A stretch of DNA of 64,000 nt from Candidatus Nomurabacteria bacterium (lineage in GTDB: Bacteria; Patescibacteriota; Minisyncoccia; Phycocordibacterales; UBA9973): the NCBI GenBank assembly GCA_026395915.1, contig JAPLXU010000020.1, positions 18,729 to 82,728 on the forward strand, in the 5' to 3' direction. This document shows positions 27,249 through 36,841 of this stretch, one piece after another. The position numbers and the translations under genes are program-made. Numbering within the stretch: position 1 is the first letter of the stretch; every line of letters starts with the position of its first letter. The notes beneath the pieces were generated by a model. It had not been told where the DNA came from and did not search any database. It was given only the letters and a program-made list of their open reading frames with translations.

Positions 27249-30200
27249 ATGAGTATACGAAAATTTGTTTTCTTGTTTTCGTTTATCATTTTTCTCTCCT
27301 TCGCTCCGAAGGTATTTGCCGAGACTCATGTGTCGGGGAATATAGACACAAACACAACTTGGAGTTTGGCTAATAGTCCGTATGTGGTGGATAACACAGT
27401 TATTATTCTTGCAGGAAATACACTTACTGTTGAACCTGGGGTTATCATGAAGTTCTCTTCTAGTTTTGGGAGTTTGGAAGTCGAAGGTACGTTAGATGTT
27501 CCTGGCACAGCAAAATTACCTATTGTTTTCACTTCATACAAAGATGACAACGCGGGAGGTGATACAAATGCCGACGGGACAGCTTCTTTTCCTGAATCTT
27601 TAGATTGGAGAGGAATTATTTTTCATCCTAATTCTGTTGGAAATATTTCCCACGCTTCAATACTTTTTGGCGGGCAATATATTTTCATGTCCTCAGGTTT
27701 CGTTTCTTTTCCTATGATTAGACAAAATGGCGGAACGCTTGCACTTGATAATGTCGAGCTGAGTCCTTACACTTCGCTTGTGGACGGACTCGGGCAAACT
27801 GATGGAAATACTACGATTGCAAATTCACAAATAAAGAATGCGGGGAATAGTATCTCTATCTCTGGTGGCGCTCTTTCTATCCATGGCAGCGTTATTGATG
27901 GAATTAACTATGCACTTAAAAATGACAGCGCGAATATGGTTGATGCGAAAAATAACTGGTGGAGCGATCCTTCTGGTCCTACGCATATAAACAATCCTAA
28001 TGGTGTCGGTGGCCGTATTTCTGGCGACGTATCGTTTTCTCCTTGGCTTAATGTCGATCCGACCATTGCTTTGATAACACTTTCCGCGTCTCCGGATGTA
28101 GGCTTCTCTGGAGATGCGACTAACGCTAGTATTGAACCAAACTTTGGAAACACTGGCACCGTCTTCACATTTAAAACGGTTTATACCAATTCTTTCAATC
28201 AATCGCCAACGAGTGTGCGTCTTGTGATAACAAGAGGCGACAGCAATGCGCCGTGCCAAGCGATAGGCGGTGGAGGTCCGCCACAACCTGCTTTTTTCTT
28301 CAAACAAATTTTTGCTATTACCGCATACGCTTCGGAAGATGACGGATGCGTGATGAGTTTAGACATGAATAGCTCAGCAATATTGCATGACGGTGATTAT
28401 GCCAATGGAGAACAATATGTCATTAAGCAAAAATTTCCTGTCGGAAATTACAAGTATCGTATAGAAGCGGATAATACGCGATACCCAGAAACTGGAAGTT
28501 TTGCATTTCAAGTGAACGAAGATTGTTGCTCAAGCATTCTTTTCTTGCCAGGGATTGAAGCGAGCAGATTGTATAAGCAAAAAACAGCGCTTGGTTTGCT
28601 GGTGGAAGATCAGCTTTGGGAACCGAATGTAAACAGTGATGTGGAAGATTTATATCTGAATATCGACGGGACGAGCAAAAATTCGAATATTTATACGAGA
28701 GATATTATAAAAGAAAGCAATGTTCCGATTCCGATGGGTCCTCTTGGGCAGAACATTTATAAAAGTTTTTCCAATGCGATGGATGGGTTGGTTGATGATG
28801 AAAAAATCGGCGAGTGGAAACCGTTTGCTTATGATTGGCGACAAAGTGTCGATGATATTGTAAATAACGGAACAAAGTATCAAAGTGGCAATGTGTCGCT
28901 CGTCGCTACATTGCAATCACTTGTCAATTCAACTAAAAATAAAAATGGAAAAGTAACAATTGTCGCGCACAGCAATGGTGGACTTTTAGCTAAAGCTCTT
29001 TTGAAAAAACTTCAGGACGATAAAGTTGCGGGAAGAAATAATTTGATTGACAGTGTGGATGTGTTGATTTTAGTTGCAACGCCGGAGATAGGCACAGCAA
29101 GCGCCGTGCCGGTGGTGTTGCATGGATATGATCAAGAAATTGCGGGCGGTTGGTTGATGGATGAAGTTCGCGCTAGGGAAGTGGGGCGAAACATGCTTGG
29201 AGCCTTCGGACTTTTGCCGAGCAGAGAATACATCAATAGGGTAAGCGCTTCGCCAGTGACATTTGTGGATAACTTAATTCCTTCGAATGTCACAACGAAA
29301 CTTGTCAAAACTTTCGGCAGCGCGATTGATTCGTATGCCGAATATAAAAGTTTTCTTTTTGGCGGAGAGGGGAGGATAAATCCAACAATAAGCCAAACAA
29401 ATTTACCGATTAGTTTGTCGCAAAGTTTGTTTGCTAAAACAGAAAGTTTGCATGATAGCATTGACTCTTTTGTTCCGCCGGCGAGTTTGCGAGTGATTGA
29501 AGTCGCTGGTTGGGGATTGGACACCATTGCCAGTTTTGAATATTATCCGAGATTAGATTGTGGTAGTAATCTTTGCGCTTCGTATATATTAGACGAACGG
29601 CCTCGTTTTACTTCAGATGGAGACAAAACAGTGGTTGTCCCAAGCGCGCAATATATGAGTGTTAATGGAAATGCGGAGAAATATTGGGTGGATTTACCCG
29701 TCCACAATAGACAATTACCATTAGGATTAAGAAGAAATAGAAATCATGGAGATATTTTAGAAGTTACTTCATTAAATAATTTGATTCAGTCTGTTGTAGA
29801 GAAAAAGGATATCATCTTTGATGATGTTTTGAAAAACTCTGAACCCGCAGACAACTCAAATCGTTTAAGATTGTCCATTCACTCACCAGTTACACTAGAT
29901 GCATACGATGCAAATGGAAATCACACAGGAAAAATTTGTCCGCTAACCTCAGACTTTTGTTACAAAGAAGAAAATATTGTCAATTCGTCTTATGTGGAAT
30001 TTGGAGAAGGAAAATATCTCAATCTTCCGGAAGATCAAATGAAAAGTATCAAACTTCAGGGCACAGATGTGGGAACATTTACATACAGTTCAGAAAAAGT
30101 TTTGCCAAATGGAACTTCTATTACTTCATTTTTTGTAGATATTCCTGTAACAACACAGACACAAGCACAGATAATTCTTAATCCAAGCACTCAAACACCG

Positions 30201-30602
30201 CAACTGGCCTTGGATGTGACGGGCGATGGAACGACTGATTTTATTGTTACCCCAAATTCAGCTTTTGATCCTGTGCTTTTTCTGCAAGTAATGAGAAAAA
30301 CTGTTGATTCTTTTGACATATCTAAACAGCAGAAAAACGCGCTTGAAAAACGAATCGATGATACAATAAAAGCGATACAGAAGGGTAAAATAAATAAAGC
30401 AAAAATAAAAATAGAGCAGTTCAAAAAGATTTTGATAATATATCCGAAAGAAAGTGATAGAGATAGGCGAGAAAGAGAAAGAAGAAATGAACGAGAACAT
30501 GAAAGAGAGCGCAGAGAGCATAGAAAACCGGGACAATTGTCGTCAGCTGATGCGCAGACCTTAATTACGTTATTGAATCAATTATTAGATAATTTGAATT
30601 AG
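27249..30602 (+). CDS. giant secreted protein: parallel beta-helix N-terminal region, LCAT/PGAP1-like alpha/beta-hydrolase (lipase) domain, charged RE-repeat C-terminus (1117 aa)
   Basis: signal peptide; LFLPGIEASRLY and nucleophile elbow VTIVAHSNGGLLA (GxSxG); C-terminal RRERERRNEREHERERREHR. Confidence 0.7.
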   Translation: MSIRKFVFLFSFIIFLSFAPKVFAETHVSGNIDTNTTWSLANSPYVVDNTVIILAGNTLTVEPGVIMKFSSSFGSLEVEGTLDVPGTAKLPIVFTSYKDDNAGGDTNADGTASFPESLDWRGIIFHPNSVGNISHASILFGGQYIFMSSGFVSFPMIRQNGGTLALDNVELSPYTSLVDGLGQTDGNTTIANSQIKNAGNSISISGGALSIHGSVIDGINYALKNDSANMVDAKNNWWSDPSGPTHINNPNGVGGRISGDVSFSPWLNVDPTIALITLSASPDVGFSGDATNASIEPNFGNTGTVFTFKTVYTNSFNQSPTSVRLVITRGDSNAPCQAIGGGGPPQPAFFFKQIFAITAYASEDDGCVMSLDMNSSAILHDGDYANGEQYVIKQKFPVGNYKYRIEADNTRYPETGSFAFQVNEDCCSSILFLPGIEASRLYKQKTALGLLVEDQLWEPNVNSDVEDLYLNIDGTSKNSNIYTRDIIKESNVPIPMGPLGQNIYKSFSNAMDGLVDDEKIGEWKPFAYDWRQSVDDIVNNGTKYQSGNVSLVATLQSLVNSTKNKNGKVTIVAHSNGGLLAKALLKKLQDDKVAGRNNLIDSVDVLILVATPEIGTASAVPVVLHGYDQEIAGGWLMDEVRAREVGRNMLGAFGLLPSREYINRVSASPVTFVDNLIPSNVTTKLVKTFGSAIDSYAEYKSFLFGGEGRINPTISQTNLPISLSQSLFAKTESLHDSIDSFVPPASLRVIEVAGWGLDTIASFEYYPRLDCGSNLCASYILDERPRFTSDGDKTVVVPSAQYMSVNGNAEKYWVDLPVHNRQLPLGLRRNRNHGDILEVTSLNNLIQSVVEKKDIIFDDVLKNSEPADNSNRLRLSIHSPVTLDAYDANGNHTGKICPLTSDFCYKEENIVNSSYVEFGEGKYLNLPEDQMKSIKLQGTDVGTFTYSSEKVLPNGTSITSFFVDIPVTTQTQAQIILNPSTQTPQLALDVTGDGTTDFIVTPNSAFDPVLFLQVMRKTVDSFDISKQQKNALEKRIDDTIKAIQKGKINKAKIKIEQFKKILIIYPKESDRDRRERERRNEREHERERREHRKPGQLSSADAQTLITLLNQLLDNLN

Positions 30603-30603
30603 T

Positions 30604-31017
30604 ATGAAAAAGAAATTTATAATTTTACCAATCTTTTTACTCATTTTAGTTTTTGTTGTTTCTTTGCCGTGTGACAAGCAACTTACATGTAGTGGTCCAC
30701 TTTCAAATTACGTGAATTATCCAGGTTTATGGTTTTTAGTTTTGATTCCCCTCAGTTTGCTAGCTCTCACTCTTAATGACAGAAAGCACAAATTTTGGCT
30801 AAAATTTACAGGTATATTTTTTGCGATATCGATGTTTTTTGTGTTTTTAATTCCAGAAACTGCTAGAGGCATTATGCTCAATCCTGATAGAGAATCCGCT
30901 AATTGGTTTTTTGTTGGTTTGTATTCTTTTATTTCTATAATTTATTTTTTTGTTCAATTTTTTAAAAACAAAAACAAAAATATTCAAGAAAAACCAGAGA
31001 AAAACTATTTTATATAA
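30604..31017 (+). CDS. small 4-TM membrane protein with Cys-x-Cys loop
   Basis: 137 aa; LPCDKQLTCSGP loop after TM1; starts 2 nt after lipase gene stop. Confidence 0.6.
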   Translation: MKKKFIILPIFLLILVFVVSLPCDKQLTCSGPLSNYVNYPGLWFLVLIPLSLLALTLNDRKHKFWLKFTGIFFAISMFFVFLIPETARGIMLNPDRESANWFFVGLYSFISIIYFFVQFFKNKNKNIQEKPEKNYFI

Positions 31018-31318
31018 ATATCGCTAGTGTTGGCGACATCGCGAATTTACTTTATACTCTTGAAGTTCGAGCTGAGGAAATCCCGCTTGATCTAGAGACG
31101 CTTTCTAGTCTGAGAAATAGAATACAATATCTCAATTTCGCTCAAAGTCTGAAGAATGGTTTCTTGAAACGTGTCGAGACGCTTGAAAAGAAAAGGGAAC
31201 TCGCTAAAACGTTGTTAGATTTTTCGAAAAGCATTATGGAAAAAGCCGACAAAGGCAAGATTTCCGATATCGACGCGCAAGGGCTCATTGGTTTATTTAT
31301 TCAAATGCAAAATATGAT

Positions 31319-31744
31319 ATGATTAAAAATATGAGTACAAAAAAAATAACGTTTTTGTTATTAATTGTTTCTTTAGTAGGTTTTGGATTAGGATGTATCT
31401 TAAAAAATTCCACAGAACTTAGTTTGTGCATGGTTAGTGAACCAACTTGCATAAATAATCTTACTTGGATTGGTAATGGTTTTTTCTATGGCATGTCTGC
31501 ATTGTCACTTGTATTTTTTGTATTAATTTTTACCCAAAAAGCTTTTCCTGCATGGAAGAAATTTGCGATTTGGTTTGTGCCTCTAGCGACCCTGCTTTTT
31601 ATTTTTTATCCGAACCCGGGCTCCGGTGATCTCTTTTCTCCGTATCCTGAGCAAGTATTCAAATGGGTGAGTATCTTGTATGTTGTGATAAGCGTTTTGA
31701 TTATTGCGTTCAACAGCAAGAAGCAATCTACTTTAGTTAAGTAA
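31319..31744 (+). CDS. small 4-TM membrane protein, paralog-like of 30604..31017
   Basis: 141 aa; same topology and Cys loop (ELSLCMVSEPTCINNL) after TM1. Confidence 0.6.
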   Translation: MIKNMSTKKITFLLLIVSLVGFGLGCILKNSTELSLCMVSEPTCINNLTWIGNGFFYGMSALSLVFFVLIFTQKAFPAWKKFAIWFVPLATLLFIFYPNPGSGDLFSPYPEQVFKWVSILYVVISVLIIAFNSKKQSTLVK

Positions 31745-32196
31745 AGTGAATTGATTGTACCAAAATTATTTTCAACGGAGACAATGCCTCCAGTTATTTC
31801 GATCCTCGTGAAAGAGGGGAAAATAAAAAAGGAAGGAAAAACCGGCGAAGCTGTTTTTTACACCAAACTCTATTTTTTTTCTTTACTTTTTCCAAGCTCG
31901 AGTATAAAGTGTAGGTGGATATTGTTCTTCAGCTCAAAATTTGGTGATCTGACAAACGTCCCCGGACAAGAGCCAGTTCAAGATCCACGTTGGTAAAGGA
32001 GGTTGCCATTAAAGAGACACACCCCCCTTAGCCTTCATCTTCGTATAAAACTTGGTTGGTGTATCTTCTACACCAATGCGCTGACGCAATGTCACACCGC
32101 AGGGCCTCGGATATCTATCCTTGGCCCCCTTTTTCTTTTTATTCAACTTTTCAATTTTTTCTTTTAATTAATTTTTAACTTTGATACAATAAACTC

Positions 32197-33106: not shown

Positions 33107-36100
33107 ATGGCTGAAAAAGATGAAAAAGGAAAAAGCGACGCCGCCCTGCGCGAAGAGCGGGTTTTGGAGTTTTGGAAAGAAAATAAAATTTTTGAAAAGT
33201 CTCTGAAACAAACCGAGAACGGGAAAGAATATATTTTTTACGAAGGCCCGCCGACGGCAAACGGCAAGCCGGGGATTCATCACTTGGAGGCGCGAGCTTT
33301 CAAGGATGTCATTCCTAGATACAAAACAATGCGCGGTTTTCATGTCCGCCGAAAATGCGGATGGGACACGCATGGTCTGCCAGTGGAGCTTCAGGTAGAA
33401 AAAAAACTCGGACTCAATTCTAAAAAAGCTATCGAAGAATATGGCGTTGCTAAATTTAACCAAGAATGCAAGGAAAGCGTCTGGGAGTATTTGGATATTT
33501 GGAATAAATTCACGAAGCGCATCGGTTTTTGGCTTGATCAAGAGCACCCCTATGTGACTTATCAAAACAATTATATCGAGTCTGTCTGGAATATAATCAA
33601 GAAAGTTAACGGGCAAAAACTTTTATACAAGGATTACAAAGTTGTGCCGTGGTGTCCGAGATGCGGGACGGCTCTCTCTTCGCACGAGCTCGCGCAGGGG
33701 TACGAAGATGTGAAAGATTTGTCGGTTTATGTGAAGTTTCGCGTACTTGGCGGAGGAACTGTCCTCTCGGGGTCGCTGTCTGGGTCTGCTGACCCAGCGC
33801 TCACTCTCGGTTCGTCAGCCTGCGAGAGACCCCGCGACGACAGTTCCTCCGCCGACACTTTTTTCCTTGCTTGGACGACGACGCCTTGGACTCTTCCGGG
33901 TAATGTGGCTCTGGCTGTTGGCAAGGATATTGATTATGTGAAAATATCCGCCAAAGGCGGATCCGCCTCTGGAGGAAAAATCGGAAATGAAATTTATATT
34001 TTAGCAAAGGCTCGGCTTTCGGTAATCACTGAGCCGTTTGAGATCATCGAGGAAATGAAAGGTAAAGATTTAATTGGTTTTGCATACGAACCACTTTTTA
34101 CGTTTCTTGCCGACATTATTTCGGAAAGCGAACCTGTCCGCAATGCTTCAGGCATAACTGATGCAGGCGAAAAACCAAAATTGGAAAAAGCCTACAAAGT
34201 TTACGGCGCGGATTTTGTGAATACGGAAGACGGAACGGGCATCGTGCACACAGCCGTGATGTATGGGCAAGATGATTTCGTGTTGGGGACACAGATTGGT
34301 TTGCCGAAGCATCACCTCGTTGGGCTTGATGGCAAATTCTTAGCGGGGACGGGATTTTTGGAAGGCAGATTTGTGAAAGAAAAAGACGCAAACGGCAAGC
34401 CGACCTTGGATGTGGACATTATTAAATATCTGACTGAGAAAAATCTGTTTTTCAAAAAGGAAAATTATGAGCACTCGTATCCGCATTGTTGGCGATGTCA
34501 CACGGCGCTCATTTACTACGCTCGGGATTCTTGGTATATCCGAATGTCGGATCCGAAAATCAAAGAGAAATTAATCAACGAGAACAAAAAAATAAATTGG
34601 GAGCCGTCCTATATTAAAGACGGGCGTTTCGGTGAATGGTTGAAGGATGTCAAAGATTGGGCAATATCGCGCGAACGATATTGGGGATCGCCACTGCCTG
34701 TCTGGATCTGCGAGTCTTGCAAAAAAGTTGATGTGATCGGAAGCGTAGCTGATTTGAAAGCCAAAACGAAAAAATCCGGCAATAAATATTTTGTGATGAG
34801 ACATGGGGAGGCGGAGAACAATGTCCTTGATATTGTTTCAAGCAATCCAAATAATACTCACCATCTTACGGAAAAAGGAAAGAAACAAATAGAAAAAGCA
34901 GCTCAATTTTTAATTGATAAAAATATCGATATAATTTTTACTTCTACATTTTTACGAGCACGAGAGACATCAGATTTAATCGCTGGAATAATGAAGTTTT
35001 CTCCACAAGATATAAGAACAGATTCAAGATTAATTGAAATAAATGACGGAACTTTTGACAATAAATCTGTAAAGCAAGTTTATGATTTTTTTGTAAATAA
35101 TAATTTAGATAGATATGATACTGGTTGTCAGGGTGGCGAGAGTATAGTTGATGTTAAAAAAAGAGTGGGGGAATTTATTTATGAAATTGATCAAAGATAT
35201 CAAAATAAAAATATATTAATTATTACGCACGAAGATACAGCTTGGGCATTGTTTTCCGTGATTAATGGTTTTAACAAAAAAGAAACAACTCAAGATAAAA
35301 AATATGATTTTATGCTAGATAATGCTCAAATCAGAGAACTTGATTTTGTTCCTATCCCTCATAACGAAAATTATGAACTTGATTTGCACAAGCCTTACAT
35401 TGATGAAGTTAGTCTTGTTTGTGCCCGTTCGACAAGCTCAGGACAAGCTTGCGGTGGAAAATTAATTAGGACAAAAGAGGTGATGGACGTTTGGCTTGAT
35501 TCTGGCGCTATGCCTTTTGCTCAAGATCACTATCCTTTCGAAAATAAAAAATGGGTGGAGGGGAAAGGTTATCCCGCGGATTTTATTTCGGAGGCCATAG
35601 ACCAGACTCGCGGATGGTTTTACACTTTGCATGCTATCGGGACGCTGATGGGGCGGGGGATGGCTTACAAAAATGTCATTTGTCTTGGTCATCTTCTAGA
35701 CGCGTCTGGCAAAAAAATGTCCAAGTCTCTCGGCAACATTGTCGATCCTTGGACGATGATTGAAAAATACGGCGCAGACACGCTTCGCCTATGGATGTAT
35801 TCTGTGAACCAACCGGGCGAATCTAAAAATTTTGACGAGAAGACAGTCAACCTGCTTCATCAGCAAGTTTTCGGTTTGCTTTACAACGTGCTCGCTTTTT
35901 ACGAACTATACAGAGATAAGAACTTAGAGAAGAACCTCACCCCTTCGCCCCTCTCCTTGTTAAGGAGAGGAGTTGGGGAGGGGTCTAACGTTTTGGACAA
36001 ATGGATCTTGGCCAGACTCGATGAATTGACGGAGCTTTCCACAAAAAATCTCGACAGTTATAAACTGCTCGAGCCGGTGAGAGGTATACAAGATTTTATC

Positions 36101-36841
36101 GGAGATCTTTCCACTTGGTATTTGCGTCGTTCGCGTGAACGAATAAAAAATGGCGACCTTGAAGCCAAAGCGACTCTTTATTTTGTTTTGAAAAATCTCG
36201 CGAAAATCATAGCCCCTTTTGCGCCTTTCTCAGCAGAAGATATTTGGCGCCGATTAAAAAATGAAAACGATTCGGAGAGCGTGCATTTGGCGAAGTGGCC
36301 GAACATGTCAAGGACGGTCCTTGACATGTTCGGCAGTAAAAAATCAAAAGTTCTCAAAAACATGGAAAATGTCCGAAAAATCGTGACTCTTGGACTTGAG
36401 GCTCGCCAAAAAGCTGGCATCAAGGTTCGTCAGCCACTTGCCATGCTCACTCTCAAGAATTTAGATTTTCATGAACTTGGTCCAAGTCTGGTTGAACTTA
36501 TAAAAGATGAAATTAATGTTAAAGAAGTAGTTATTGATACAATCATATCAGATGAAGCTATGTTGGATATTGAAATTACTCCGGAACTAAAACAAGAAGG
36601 GAATTATCGCGAGCTGGCGCGGGCGATTCAAGATATGCGTAAAAAGATGGGTCTGACGCCGAGCGATAGAGTTTCTCTCGTTTTTGAAACAGGCGAGGAA
36701 GGCAAAAAGTTAGTCCAAAAATTTGAGACTGAAATGAAAAAAACCATCTTGGCGGCGGAAATAAATTTCGGGCAAAATAACGGCGAGGAAATAAAAGTAG
36801 ACAGTTTGGTGTTCAAGATAAAAATTGGTAAAATAAAATAA
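33107..36841 (+). CDS. ileS: isoleucine--tRNA ligase (type 2) carrying three in-frame insertions including a histidine-phosphatase (PGAM-like) domain
   Basis: HIGH-like PGIHHLEA, AWTTTPWTLP, WAISRERYWGSPLP, KMSKSLGN; 1244 aa, about 200 aa longer than typical. Confidence 0.9.
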   Translation: MAEKDEKGKSDAALREERVLEFWKENKIFEKSLKQTENGKEYIFYEGPPTANGKPGIHHLEARAFKDVIPRYKTMRGFHVRRKCGWDTHGLPVELQVEKKLGLNSKKAIEEYGVAKFNQECKESVWEYLDIWNKFTKRIGFWLDQEHPYVTYQNNYIESVWNIIKKVNGQKLLYKDYKVVPWCPRCGTALSSHELAQGYEDVKDLSVYVKFRVLGGGTVLSGSLSGSADPALTLGSSACERPRDDSSSADTFFLAWTTTPWTLPGNVALAVGKDIDYVKISAKGGSASGGKIGNEIYILAKARLSVITEPFEIIEEMKGKDLIGFAYEPLFTFLADIISESEPVRNASGITDAGEKPKLEKAYKVYGADFVNTEDGTGIVHTAVMYGQDDFVLGTQIGLPKHHLVGLDGKFLAGTGFLEGRFVKEKDANGKPTLDVDIIKYLTEKNLFFKKENYEHSYPHCWRCHTALIYYARDSWYIRMSDPKIKEKLINENKKINWEPSYIKDGRFGEWLKDVKDWAISRERYWGSPLPVWICESCKKVDVIGSVADLKAKTKKSGNKYFVMRHGEAENNVLDIVSSNPNNTHHLTEKGKKQIEKAAQFLIDKNIDIIFTSTFLRARETSDLIAGIMKFSPQDIRTDSRLIEINDGTFDNKSVKQVYDFFVNNNLDRYDTGCQGGESIVDVKKRVGEFIYEIDQRYQNKNILIITHEDTAWALFSVINGFNKKETTQDKKYDFMLDNAQIRELDFVPIPHNENYELDLHKPYIDEVSLVCARSTSSGQACGGKLIRTKEVMDVWLDSGAMPFAQDHYPFENKKWVEGKGYPADFISEAIDQTRGWFYTLHAIGTLMGRGMAYKNVICLGHLLDASGKKMSKSLGNIVDPWTMIEKYGADTLRLWMYSVNQPGESKNFDEKTVNLLHQQVFGLLYNVLAFYELYRDKNLEKNLTPSPLSLLRRGVGEGSNVLDKWILARLDELTELSTKNLDSYKLLEPVRGIQDFIGDLSTWYLRRSRERIKNGDLEAKATLYFVLKNLAKIIAPFAPFSAEDIWRRLKNENDSESVHLAKWPNMSRTVLDMFGSKKSKVLKNMENVRKIVTLGLEARQKAGIKVRQPLAMLTLKNLDFHELGPSLVELIKDEINVKEVVIDTIISDEAMLDIEITPELKQEGNYRELARAIQDMRKKMGLTPSDRVSLVFETGEEGKKLVQKFETEMKKTILAAEINFGQNNGEEIKVDSLVFKIKIGKIK
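33759..33852. repeat. 94-bp GC-rich compound palindrome (ggcggaggaactgtc ... gacagttcctccgcc) in-frame in ileS just before AWTTTPWTLP
   Basis: outer 15-bp perfect inverted repeat plus inner ctgggtc/acccag hairpin; encodes GGGTVLSGSLSGSADPALTLGSSACERPRDDSSSAD. Confidence 0.8.
34781..35380 (+). other. inserted histidine phosphatase (phosphoglycerate-mutase-like) domain within ileS; AT-rich relative to rest of gene
   Basis: RHGEAENN (RHG motif), LTEKGKKQ, TSTFLRARETS, ILIITHEDTAW; lies between WICESCKKVDVIGS and LDLHKPYIDEV which are normally about 45 aa apart. Confidence 0.65.
35936..35984. repeat. GC-rich hairpin cccctctccttgttaaggagagg with G/C-rich flanks, in-frame in ileS (encodes TPSPLSLLRRGVGEGS)
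   Basis: palindrome read directly; same ctctcct/aggagag core as elements at 56461 and 62019. Confidence 0.75.

Follow-up and report, generated by a model that had tools for sequence, protein, structure and literature searches.

Lecithin:cholesterol acyltransferase (LCAT) and lysosomal phospholipase A2 (LPLA2, PLA2G15) are transacylases. In the lipA-lif loci of Pseudomonas and Burkholderia, the gene downstream of the lipase encodes a membrane-anchored lipase foldase, and Lif proteins consist of one transmembrane (TM) helix and a periplasmic helical domain of ~300 amino acids (aa). Immunity proteins of the colicin A/E1 type are 3-4-TM proteins of ~110-180 aa that reside in the inner membrane and act within it. 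Two lipase toxins from Staphylococcus aureus that belong to its type VII secretion system (T7SS), TslA and TslM, lack Sec signals and require WXG100/Lap-like helical partners as well as the T7SS; the membranes that they intoxicate accumulate lyso-lipids and free fatty acids, and their immunity proteins are a lipoprotein (TilA) and a single-pass protein with a DUF1433 ectodomain (TilM) (PMC13560087). The current study examined a locus in a 64,000-nucleotide (nt) stretch of DNA from a Candidatus Nomurabacteria bacterium (contig JAPLXU010000020.1; the whole stretch is called the window below), in which the gene for a large LCAT/LPLA2-like lipase is directly followed by the gene for a small protein with four predicted TM helices. 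This two-gene lipase-TM module is widespread in Patescibacteria.

The first-pass annotation of the window had placed three open reading frames (ORFs) here, and all three were recovered at the coordinates given for them; a fourth element lies between the second and the third:

27249..30602, + strand: lipase gene, ORF of 1117 aa (NTZ87_04295), for a putative multi-domain LCAT/LPLA2-like phospholipase/acyltransferase with predicted Sec export
30604..31017, + strand: TM1, four-TM partner, ORF of 137 aa (NTZ87_04300)
31014..31322, + strand: 3' remnant of a second lipase gene, of the TM2-associated subfamily, ~102 codons plus a TGA stop, without a plausible start codon
31319..31744, + strand: TM2, four-TM orphan partner, ORF of 141 aa (NTZ87_04305, for which the NCBI start is Met5)

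The three proteins are identical to hypothetical proteins NTZ87_04295, NTZ87_04300 and NTZ87_04305 of a Candidatus Nomurabacteria metagenome-assembled genome (lipase match 100%). The lipase stop codon (TAG, 30600-30602) is separated from the TM1 ATG by one base, where a distance of 2 nt had been claimed. As detailed below, the locus reads as [lipase-TM1][Δlipase'-TM2], with the two-gene module present once intact and once decayed.

The association between lipase and TM genes was followed in three samples of related sequences (in what follows, L-numbers are related loci and P-numbers homologous proteins). The lipase-centred sample comprised 80 loci from species-representative genomes, drawn from at least 580 matching stretches. 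A match to the TM1/TM2 hidden Markov model (HMM) was present at the lipase stop in 42 of the 72 loci with downstream room, and approximately 24 of the other 30 carried a different small 3-4-TM ORF that started 0-5 nt after the stop or overlapped it. Across 97 unique pairs the modal gap was 1 nt and 79 gaps fell within -8 to +12 nt; 69 of the partners had four and 22 had three predicted TM segments, with 81 belonging to one BLAST superfamily. The TM2-centred sample of 75 metagenome loci yielded 67 informative genes, of which 40 followed a full-length lipase ORF, 16 a lipase ORF cut by the contig end, four another TM gene (TM-TM arrays) and four lipase fragments; a lipase was undetected upstream of the remaining three, two of which (L109 and L110) have a lipase ORF close upstream, beyond the strict distance window. 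In TM1-centred look-ups, three of three genes sat 1 nt after an LCAT-domain gene, and one of these loci is syntenic with the window (ArgRS-PIF1-lipase-TM1-...-IleRS, where ArgRS and IleRS are arginyl- and isoleucyl-tRNA synthetase). The co-occurrence check proposed in the first-pass annotation thus gave near-universal pairing in every sample, with approximately 60 of the 67 informative TM2-centred genes paired, and the adjacency recurs in more than 100 independent loci, which is far beyond chance. Its competing scenario, that the TM proteins are housekeeping membrane proteins unlinked to lipase genes elsewhere, does not apply, as both TM families occur almost exclusively directly downstream of lipase genes. 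Clustering of neighbouring genes at 126 loci revealed no third gene and no secretion gene that recurs beside the module, the other frequent neighbours representing housekeeping synteny.

Some individual neighbours differ. A PlsC-type acyltransferase (PF01553) lies directly downstream of the pair in L156 (5462-6103) and L157 (2610-3251), both from one organism, which is suggestive of lysolipid re-acylation; a general linkage to lipid metabolism through PlsC was rejected, since none of the 158 other sources (157 loci and the window) has PlsC at that position. Y1-type (REP-associated/IS200-like) transposase genes adjoin some lipases, occupying the usual position of the TM partner in L013 (4504-5178) and lying just upstream of a lipase split into two ORFs in L158 (L158/L159, 843-1505).

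The lipase itself contains the following features, where AF2 denotes the AlphaFold2 model, pLDDT its predicted local distance difference test score, and A3 an alignment of 28 diverse homologs:

27249..27320, + strand: predicted signal peptide for Sec export, aa 1-24, cut after VFA, judged from the sequence itself
27321..28520, + strand: variable N-terminal region, with aa 25-277 beta-helix/NosD-like by homologs and aa 278-424 a variable beta-rich linker domain
28521..29828, + strand: predicted catalytic alpha/beta-hydrolase and cap domain of LPLA2/LCAT type, aa 425-860
aa 528-531, + strand: YDWR motif, conserved in A3
28971-28973, + strand: Ser575, putative nucleophile, invariant column in A3
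29622-29624, + strand: Asp792, invariant column in A3
29745-29747, + strand: His833, invariant column in A3
29676..29885, + strand: segment aa 810-879, comprising the variable loop before His833, His833 and the following helices, with the strongest covariation with the TM partner
29862..30248, + strand: conserved beta-sandwich domain, aa 872-1000, AF2 strands at core 448-576, kept in all homologs to ~residue 1002
30270..30599, + strand: helical C-terminal tail, FIMAH-like, aa 1008-1117, AF2 helices at core 584-692
30450-30527, + strand: RE-rich low-complexity linker, aa 1068-1093, low pLDDT, interrupting the helical tail

By predicted fold and motifs, the lipase is a serine hydrolase of the LCAT/LPLA2 type. 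PF02450 (LCAT) matched at an E-value of 5.2e-9 (36.3 bits against a gathering score of 21), over profile positions 91-239 of 392 only, and precomputed PF02450 annotations were present on all 120 homologs listed. The motifs LFLPGIEASRLY, YDWR and AHSNGG are all found in the protein, and Ser575 (in AHSNGG), Asp792 (in GDxTVV), His833 and YDWR are invariant in A3; the conserved core of the homologs extends from ~residue 425 to 1002, often on to 1117. The AF2 model built from A3 (pLDDT 87.4, predicted template-modelling score 0.86, with most of the catalytic domain above pLDDT 90) comprises an alpha/beta-hydrolase with a helical cap (425-860), the beta-sandwich (872-1000) and the helical tail with its disordered RE linker. 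Searches of the PDB by sequence, using the full protein, the family profile or the Asp/His segment, returned nothing significant, and a sequence-only alignment to LPLA2 from the PDB was likewise not significant; the fold search alone succeeded. The top Foldseek match was LPLA2 (4x97, E 1.2e-12, template-modelling score (TM-score) 0.72 normalised to the target, ~460 columns that take in nearly all of LPLA2), with human LCAT (5bv7) at E 2e-9 and TM-score 0.63 and the lipase Tle4 of the type VI secretion system (T6SS) as fifth-best match (E 1.7e-9, TM-score 0.43); far weaker matches were obtained for Legionella PlaB and for lipases of Geobacillus. This search was the remote homology check that had been suggested against the LCAT, PlaB and Tle families, and it agrees with the earlier assignment of an LCAT-type lipase domain with an AHSNGG nucleophile elbow; the concern that the hydrolase might lack a catalytic triad does not apply, as an invariant Ser-Asp-His set sits on the predicted LPLA2/LCAT fold. 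From this fold we infer phospholipase A/acyltransferase activity.

The remaining parts of the protein are less uniform. The N-terminus, MSIRKFVFLFSFIIFLSFAPKVFA followed by ET after the cleavage site, has the n-, h- and AxA-like c-regions of a Sec signal peptide, and a similar signal-peptide-like N-terminus occurs in 99 of 115 lipase homologs, in agreement with the signal peptide called in the first-pass annotation. The parallel beta-helix repeats called behind it were borne out only indirectly: the N-terminal region has no Pfam match in the window lipase even at E<=10, while lipase homologs carry PF13229, PF05048 or PF16410, and residues 1-277 align by BLAST (27-48% identity) to homolog N-termini bearing PF13229/PF05048 (Beta_helix/NosD). 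This N-terminal third is shuffled between homologs. At the other end, the charged RE-repeat tail noted earlier was located as ESDRDRRERERRNEREHERERREHRK (residues 1068-1093), and the tail gave a weak FIMAH match in Pfam (E 0.007, under the cutoff).

Four helices are predicted for TM1 in its AF2 model (residues 2-19, 34-54, 59-82 and 96-128; pLDDT 83), as the earlier call of a 4-TM topology for the 137-aa protein had held. The first outer loop contains Cys23-x6-Cys30 and the second the conserved residues D95, E97 and W101; by the positive-inside rule, the cysteine loop and the PETARGIMLNPDRE loop would both face outward, with both termini cytoplasmic. Each outer loop measures ~13-14 residues in the model, so that only ~27 residues are predicted to lie outside the membrane. 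The TM1 family (104 homologs, alignment A1) and the TM2 family (more than 247 homologs, alignment A2) are each well conserved internally, at 50-80% identity. TM1 and TM2 had been described as paralogs of the same topology, and although the two proteins are only 19% identical (BLASTP E 0.06), their family profiles match at 95% probability in hhalign (E 3.8e-8, 103 columns); the term paralogous is therefore correct at the level of a superfamily. Motifs common to both are K-F-W/W-K-K-F on the cytoplasmic side and an acidic P-x-x-E in the second outer loop, and in both the fourth helix takes the form W...LY..IS. Neither TM1 nor TM2 matched NCBIfam or PADLOC models, their Pfam matches were all under curated cut-offs, and the TM1 model found no significant fold in the PDB (best E 3.3). 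An exhaustive HMMER search with a joint TM1/TM2 profile returned ~1,050 clusters at 50% identity, nearly all of 85-180 aa, unannotated ('hypothetical') and, wherever a source name was given, from genomes of the Candidate Phyla Radiation (CPR). Among the outliers in length, P0427 and P0494 have 290 aa, with P0427 matching the profile twice as a tandem fusion of partner domains, and P0359 (377 aa) carries the partner domain at 282-366 behind an unannotated N-terminal part and is possibly a read-through fusion of a lipase tail and a partner; 10 longer superfamily members had no Pfam match. Judging from sequence, the module thus pairs an LCAT-like subfamily that is uncharacterised with a 4-TM superfamily that lacks annotation.

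The interval between TM1 and TM2 had been taken for a 300-nt spacing within a pair of tandem immunity paralogs; it measures 301 nt and is the remnant of a lipase gene rather than a spacer. It is open for more than 100 codons, and its stop overlaps the start of TM2 as ATGA. The translation matches the last 102 residues of the lipase upstream of the closest TM2 ortholog (L081; 45% identity, E 4e-26) and is colinear with it to the stop, the C-terminal ends of remnant and L081 reading KGKISDIDAQGLIGLFIQMQNMI and KGKIADFDAQALIILITQVQNMI, each followed directly by a stop codon. The tail of the intact L092 lipase is closer still (56% identity, E 2e-31), and a lipase-tail HMM from 75 other lipases, with the window excluded, matched the remnant ORF colinearly to its end (E 0.015 among 21,373 ORFs). 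The interval had no significant BLASTP match to the tail of the window's own lipase; the remnant derives from another lipase subfamily, and only the tail HMM and the L081 and L092 lipases revealed it. On this evidence, TM2 is what is left of a pair whose lipase, from a different subfamily, has been deleted, and in place of two tandem immunity paralogs the locus holds one intact cassette and the partner of that lost enzyme. Comparison of the orphan TM2 with its L081 ortholog gave a ratio of nonsynonymous to synonymous substitution rates (dN/dS) of 0.10 at a dS of ~1, which points to purifying selection.

Units of a lipase 3' remnant and a TM gene also occur in eight other loci (L123/L124, L104, L083, L075, L057, L078 and L117), with L123/L124 showing the same arrangement as the window. 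The remnants in these orphan units span 60-131 codons, most ending at or within two residues of the lipase C-terminus, and their breakpoints differ, which indicates that the deletions arose independently and left the TM gene intact. In L027, L056, L057, L083 and L075, two or three lipase-TM cassettes stand in tandem in various states of decay, full lipases being found alongside fragments of 330-350 aa and of fewer than 100 aa. The module evidently duplicates and erodes repeatedly. In the window, TM1 has an atypical C-terminal extension (KNKNIQEKPEKNYFI) otherwise seen only in the distant homolog P0219, and when the remnant is aligned by blastx to the lipase tail of L128, the match continues for 12 codons into TM1 at its 3' end, in a different frame (30978-31017). 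The deletion junction may lie inside the 3' end of TM1, in which case the TM1 C-terminus would be lipase-derived and out of frame.

The partners diverge faster than the enzyme, as at 70-80% identity of the lipase core the mean partner identity was 41% (range 23-79%). Unrelated 3-TM partner types of ~93 aa are scattered among close lipase relatives, indicating that partners have been replaced. Partner identity was correlated with that of the catalytic core (partial r 0.39, p 0.002); for the C-terminal tail the partial r was -0.01 (p 0.6), and on this result the helical tail was rejected as the element that binds the partner, a role that the orphan units of tail and TM gene had suggested. In a sliding-window scan of the 33 closest pairs, all 11 top segments fell within lipase residues 810-879, with a peak partial r of 0.44 at residues 825-844 (z 3.0, family-wise permutation p 0.005). 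Loops of the form LR(R/K/Y)NRxH co-occur with partners of the LPC..C type even in the more distant lipases L012 and L018, while closer lipases with other partners (L004 and L009) have other loops. Although closer in the DNA to the TM gene, the beta-sandwich and tail covary less with the partner; simple recombinational linkage is thus not the explanation.

Compared to the described systems, the window lipase is most like LPLA2 and LCAT, which provide the best fold matches to its catalytic core and share with it YDWR, an AHSxGG-type elbow, a GDGTV-type Asp motif and the invariant His. It differs from them in being bacterial, predicted to be Sec-secreted, ~15% identical in sequence and approximately three times larger, in adding a variable binding region at the N-terminus and, towards the C-terminus, a beta-sandwich and a helical tail, and in being encoded with an obligatory small membrane-protein partner. 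With the T6SS pairs Tle1-5/Tli1-5 (Tle4-Tli4 structure 4r1d), the locus shares a lipase that is predicted to be secreted and may target membranes, and an adjacent cognate gene. The Tle/Tli layout invoked in the first-pass annotation does not extend to membership in that group, however: the lipase has a Sec signal peptide and belongs to a monoderm-type organism without T6SS context, and whereas Tli proteins are soluble periplasmic proteins or lipoproteins with globular domains, TM1 is predicted to be a compact four-helix bundle with short outer loops. The match of the lipase itself to Tle4 has an E-value of 1.7e-9 in Foldseek, at a TM-score of 0.43 versus 0.72 for LPLA2, and in sequence it is confined to the nucleophile elbow. 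The TslA/TslM systems resemble the module in having a phospholipase domain followed by a C-terminal helical domain and in their membrane-associated immunity proteins, several non-identical genes for which stand in arrays; here, by contrast, the lipase has a predicted signal peptide, the module has no recurrent neighbour encoding a small helical partner, the tail is FIMAH-like at best, and TM1 and TM2 are polytopic, lack an ectodomain and have no Pfam match, unlike TilA and TilM (DUF576/DUF1433). The partner also departs from LipA-Lif in its 137 aa, its four predicted TM helices and the predicted absence of an extramembrane domain. In loci for contact-dependent inhibition (CDI) and Rhs, too, fragments of gene 3' ends lie downstream of the main gene, each with an intact partner gene behind it, but in the module the retained fragment is a non-catalytic helical tail rather than a toxin domain, this tail does not covary with the partner, and the catalytic domain is central and conserved instead of C-terminal and variable. 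Immunity proteins of pore-forming colicins match the partner in size and 3-4-TM topology, without detectable sequence or fold similarity to TM1 or TM2. Literature searches found no paper describing the lipase-TM pair, and those on LCAT-like enzymes in CPR/Patescibacteria and on 'FIMAH' returned nothing relevant.

There are several potential explanations for this pairing. The best reading, to which we give roughly even credence, is that of a host-membrane phospholipase with a co-translated self-protection partner. Patescibacteria do not synthesise lipids, and no mechanism of lipid uptake or breakdown has been identified in them (2024 review, PMC11665869); CPR cell membranes are enriched in lysolipids by lipidomics (PMC7242380), and a double role for secreted phospholipases, in attack and in the supply of lipids, has been proposed (PMC8080830). 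Lipid auxotrophy, lysolipid-rich membranes and the proposed phospholipases together make a phospholipase directed at the host membrane fit the biology of the group. The enzyme would act as a phospholipase A/acyltransferase on the membrane of the neighbouring (host) cell, breaching it and/or freeing the lysolipids and fatty acids that lipid-auxotrophic Patescibacteria need. Since their single membrane is exposed to their own secreted enzyme, a TM partner in the producer membrane would neutralise or gate it, probably by contacting the His-loop/cap side near the active site as the enzyme docks on the bilayer, and orphan partners such as TM2 could be kept because they protect against related lipases from neighbouring cells. 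Tight translational coupling, fast divergence and swapping of partners, retained orphans, purifying selection and covariation close to the active site are immunity-like traits. Several points weigh against self-protection, however. Tli1-5, TilA and TilM use a globular extracytoplasmic domain, as opposed to the ~27 residues predicted outside the membrane here, and direct inhibition of a large enzyme by a partner modelled with almost no ectodomain is mechanistically unproven. The within-family identity of 50-80% and the invariant loop motifs suggest less diversification than is typical of arms-race immunity genes; the module keeps its place between housekeeping genes (ArgRS-PIF1-lipase-TM-IleRS) in synteny rather than forming part of a variable island; and ~5-6 of the 72 lipases have no multi-TM partner. 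The dN/dS of TM2 is a mean for the two lineages together, and the lipase may have been deleted only recently. When all 97 distant pairs are taken, the His-loop does not stand out, only peaks of ~2 standard deviations appearing in the cap region; a scan in the other direction, along TM1, did not place the signal in the outer loops of the partner, and the covariation could partly reflect phylogenetic signal in variable segments missed by the control.

Some of the same observations could also describe a TM protein that is a docking or lipid-acceptor subunit of a lipid-harvesting machine, tethering or orienting the enzyme on the producer surface and/or receiving its products. We regard this as unlikely but conceivable. 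Translational coupling of an equimolar type, near-universal pairing, chromosomal synteny with housekeeping genes and the strong conservation of loop motifs within families (e.g., PDPGSGDxFSPYPEQ) are in its favour, covariation with the catalytic domain suits docking as well as inhibition, and an acceptor would be mechanistically natural since LCAT and LPLA2 are transacylases and the predicted fold matches theirs; lipid auxotrophy without a known uptake system is consistent with it as well (PMC11665869, PMC7242380). However, orphan partners kept under purifying selection after lipase loss, together with partner-only arrays, are difficult to reconcile with a subunit that has no use apart from its enzyme, closely related lipases are served by partners of unrelated types (3-TM of ~93 aa versus 4-TM), the C-terminal tail, an obvious tether, does not covary with the partner, a four-helix protein of ~130 aa is unlike known lipid transporters, and the PlsC-type neighbour occurs in one organism only. 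It is also possible, if doubtful, that the pair is a lipid-acquisition device of Patescibacteria in which a surface transacylase strips acyl chains or lysolipids from the host and the 4-TM protein, as a membrane-embedded gate or acceptor of a novel kind, both shields the producer's own bilayer and takes up the products. A strict interbacterial toxin with polymorphic immunity of the Tle/Tli type, with a lipase that kills competing bacteria, including other Patescibacteria, and TM1 and TM2 as its immunity repertoire, would account for the orphans, TM-TM arrays, dN/dS and partner swaps, for the structural similarity to the T6SS effector Tle4 (E 1.7e-9) and for variable N-terminal binding domains that recall the target-recognition shuffling of polymorphic toxins; 'rafts' of non-identical immunity genes are moreover typical of the T7SS lipase toxins TslA/TslM (PMC13560087). 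We nevertheless find it improbable, because a contact-dependent secretion system is neither present nor recurrent in the neighbourhood and export is predicted to be of the Sec type, the catalytic domain is conserved and the far C-terminus non-catalytic, contrary to the logic of polymorphic toxins, the module shows vertical synteny, and Patescibacteria are obligate episymbionts whose main membrane contact is the host. A maturation or release factor, either a lipase-specific foldase similar to Lif or a holin-like protein, would suit the tight gene coupling, as the gene directly downstream of a secreted lipase encodes a membrane-anchored foldase in Pseudomonas and Burkholderia (lipA-lif) and small 3-4-TM proteins beside secreted enzymes can be holins. 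It is highly improbable given that no Pfam or NCBIfam match to Lif or holins was obtained, that TM1 is essentially without an extramembrane domain while Lif has one TM helix and ~300 aa of periplasmic helices, that the lipase has its own predicted Sec signal peptide, and that orphan partners persist without a lipase.

The genes neighbouring the module in the window encode ArgRS, a PIF1 helicase, a NUDIX protein and IleRS. Rfam and tRNA scans of the window returned no matches, and promoter and terminator matches were at chance level. The ~450 nt after TM2 (31745-32196) have no convincing ORF, a locally higher G+C content and no Rfam or tRNA match, and show no similarity to the DNA downstream of TM2 in L081. 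The catalytic domain of IleRS (33107-36841, + strand, 1244 aa) is interrupted midway by a complete His_Phos_1 domain (PF00300, residues 562-747, E 2e-28), and the syntenic IleRS beside P0194 has the same histidine-phosphatase insertion. Farther downstream, 56978-60397 (+ strand) encodes a 1139-aa Thr/Ser/Gly-rich protein with a signal peptide, which is likely a surface or S-layer-type protein. This second large ORF of the window was rejected as a lipase and is unrelated to the lipase module; its sole Pfam match is PG_binding_1 (peptidoglycan-binding). Next come an ORF of 143 aa whose N-terminus has a hydrophobic segment (60477-60908, + strand) and a Fic/DOC-family protein (60990-61880, + strand; PF02661, E 2e-21, motif HPFNDGNGR).

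With at least 580 loci in species-representative genomes, the lipase-TM module is a widespread candidate for attacking or harvesting host membranes without damage to the producer's own. If the TM protein confers self-protection, it would represent a new structural class of lipase immunity protein, polytopic and with almost no ectodomain, and the pair would be the first module of an effector/immunity type to be described from episymbiotic CPR bacteria. Should it instead serve as acceptor or gate, the pair itself would constitute the machinery of lipid harvesting, and a lipid-acquisition device of this kind would explain the lysolipid-rich membranes of the CPR. Under either reading, the His-loop segment (residues 810-879) and the conserved outer loops of the partner are specific targets for mutagenesis.

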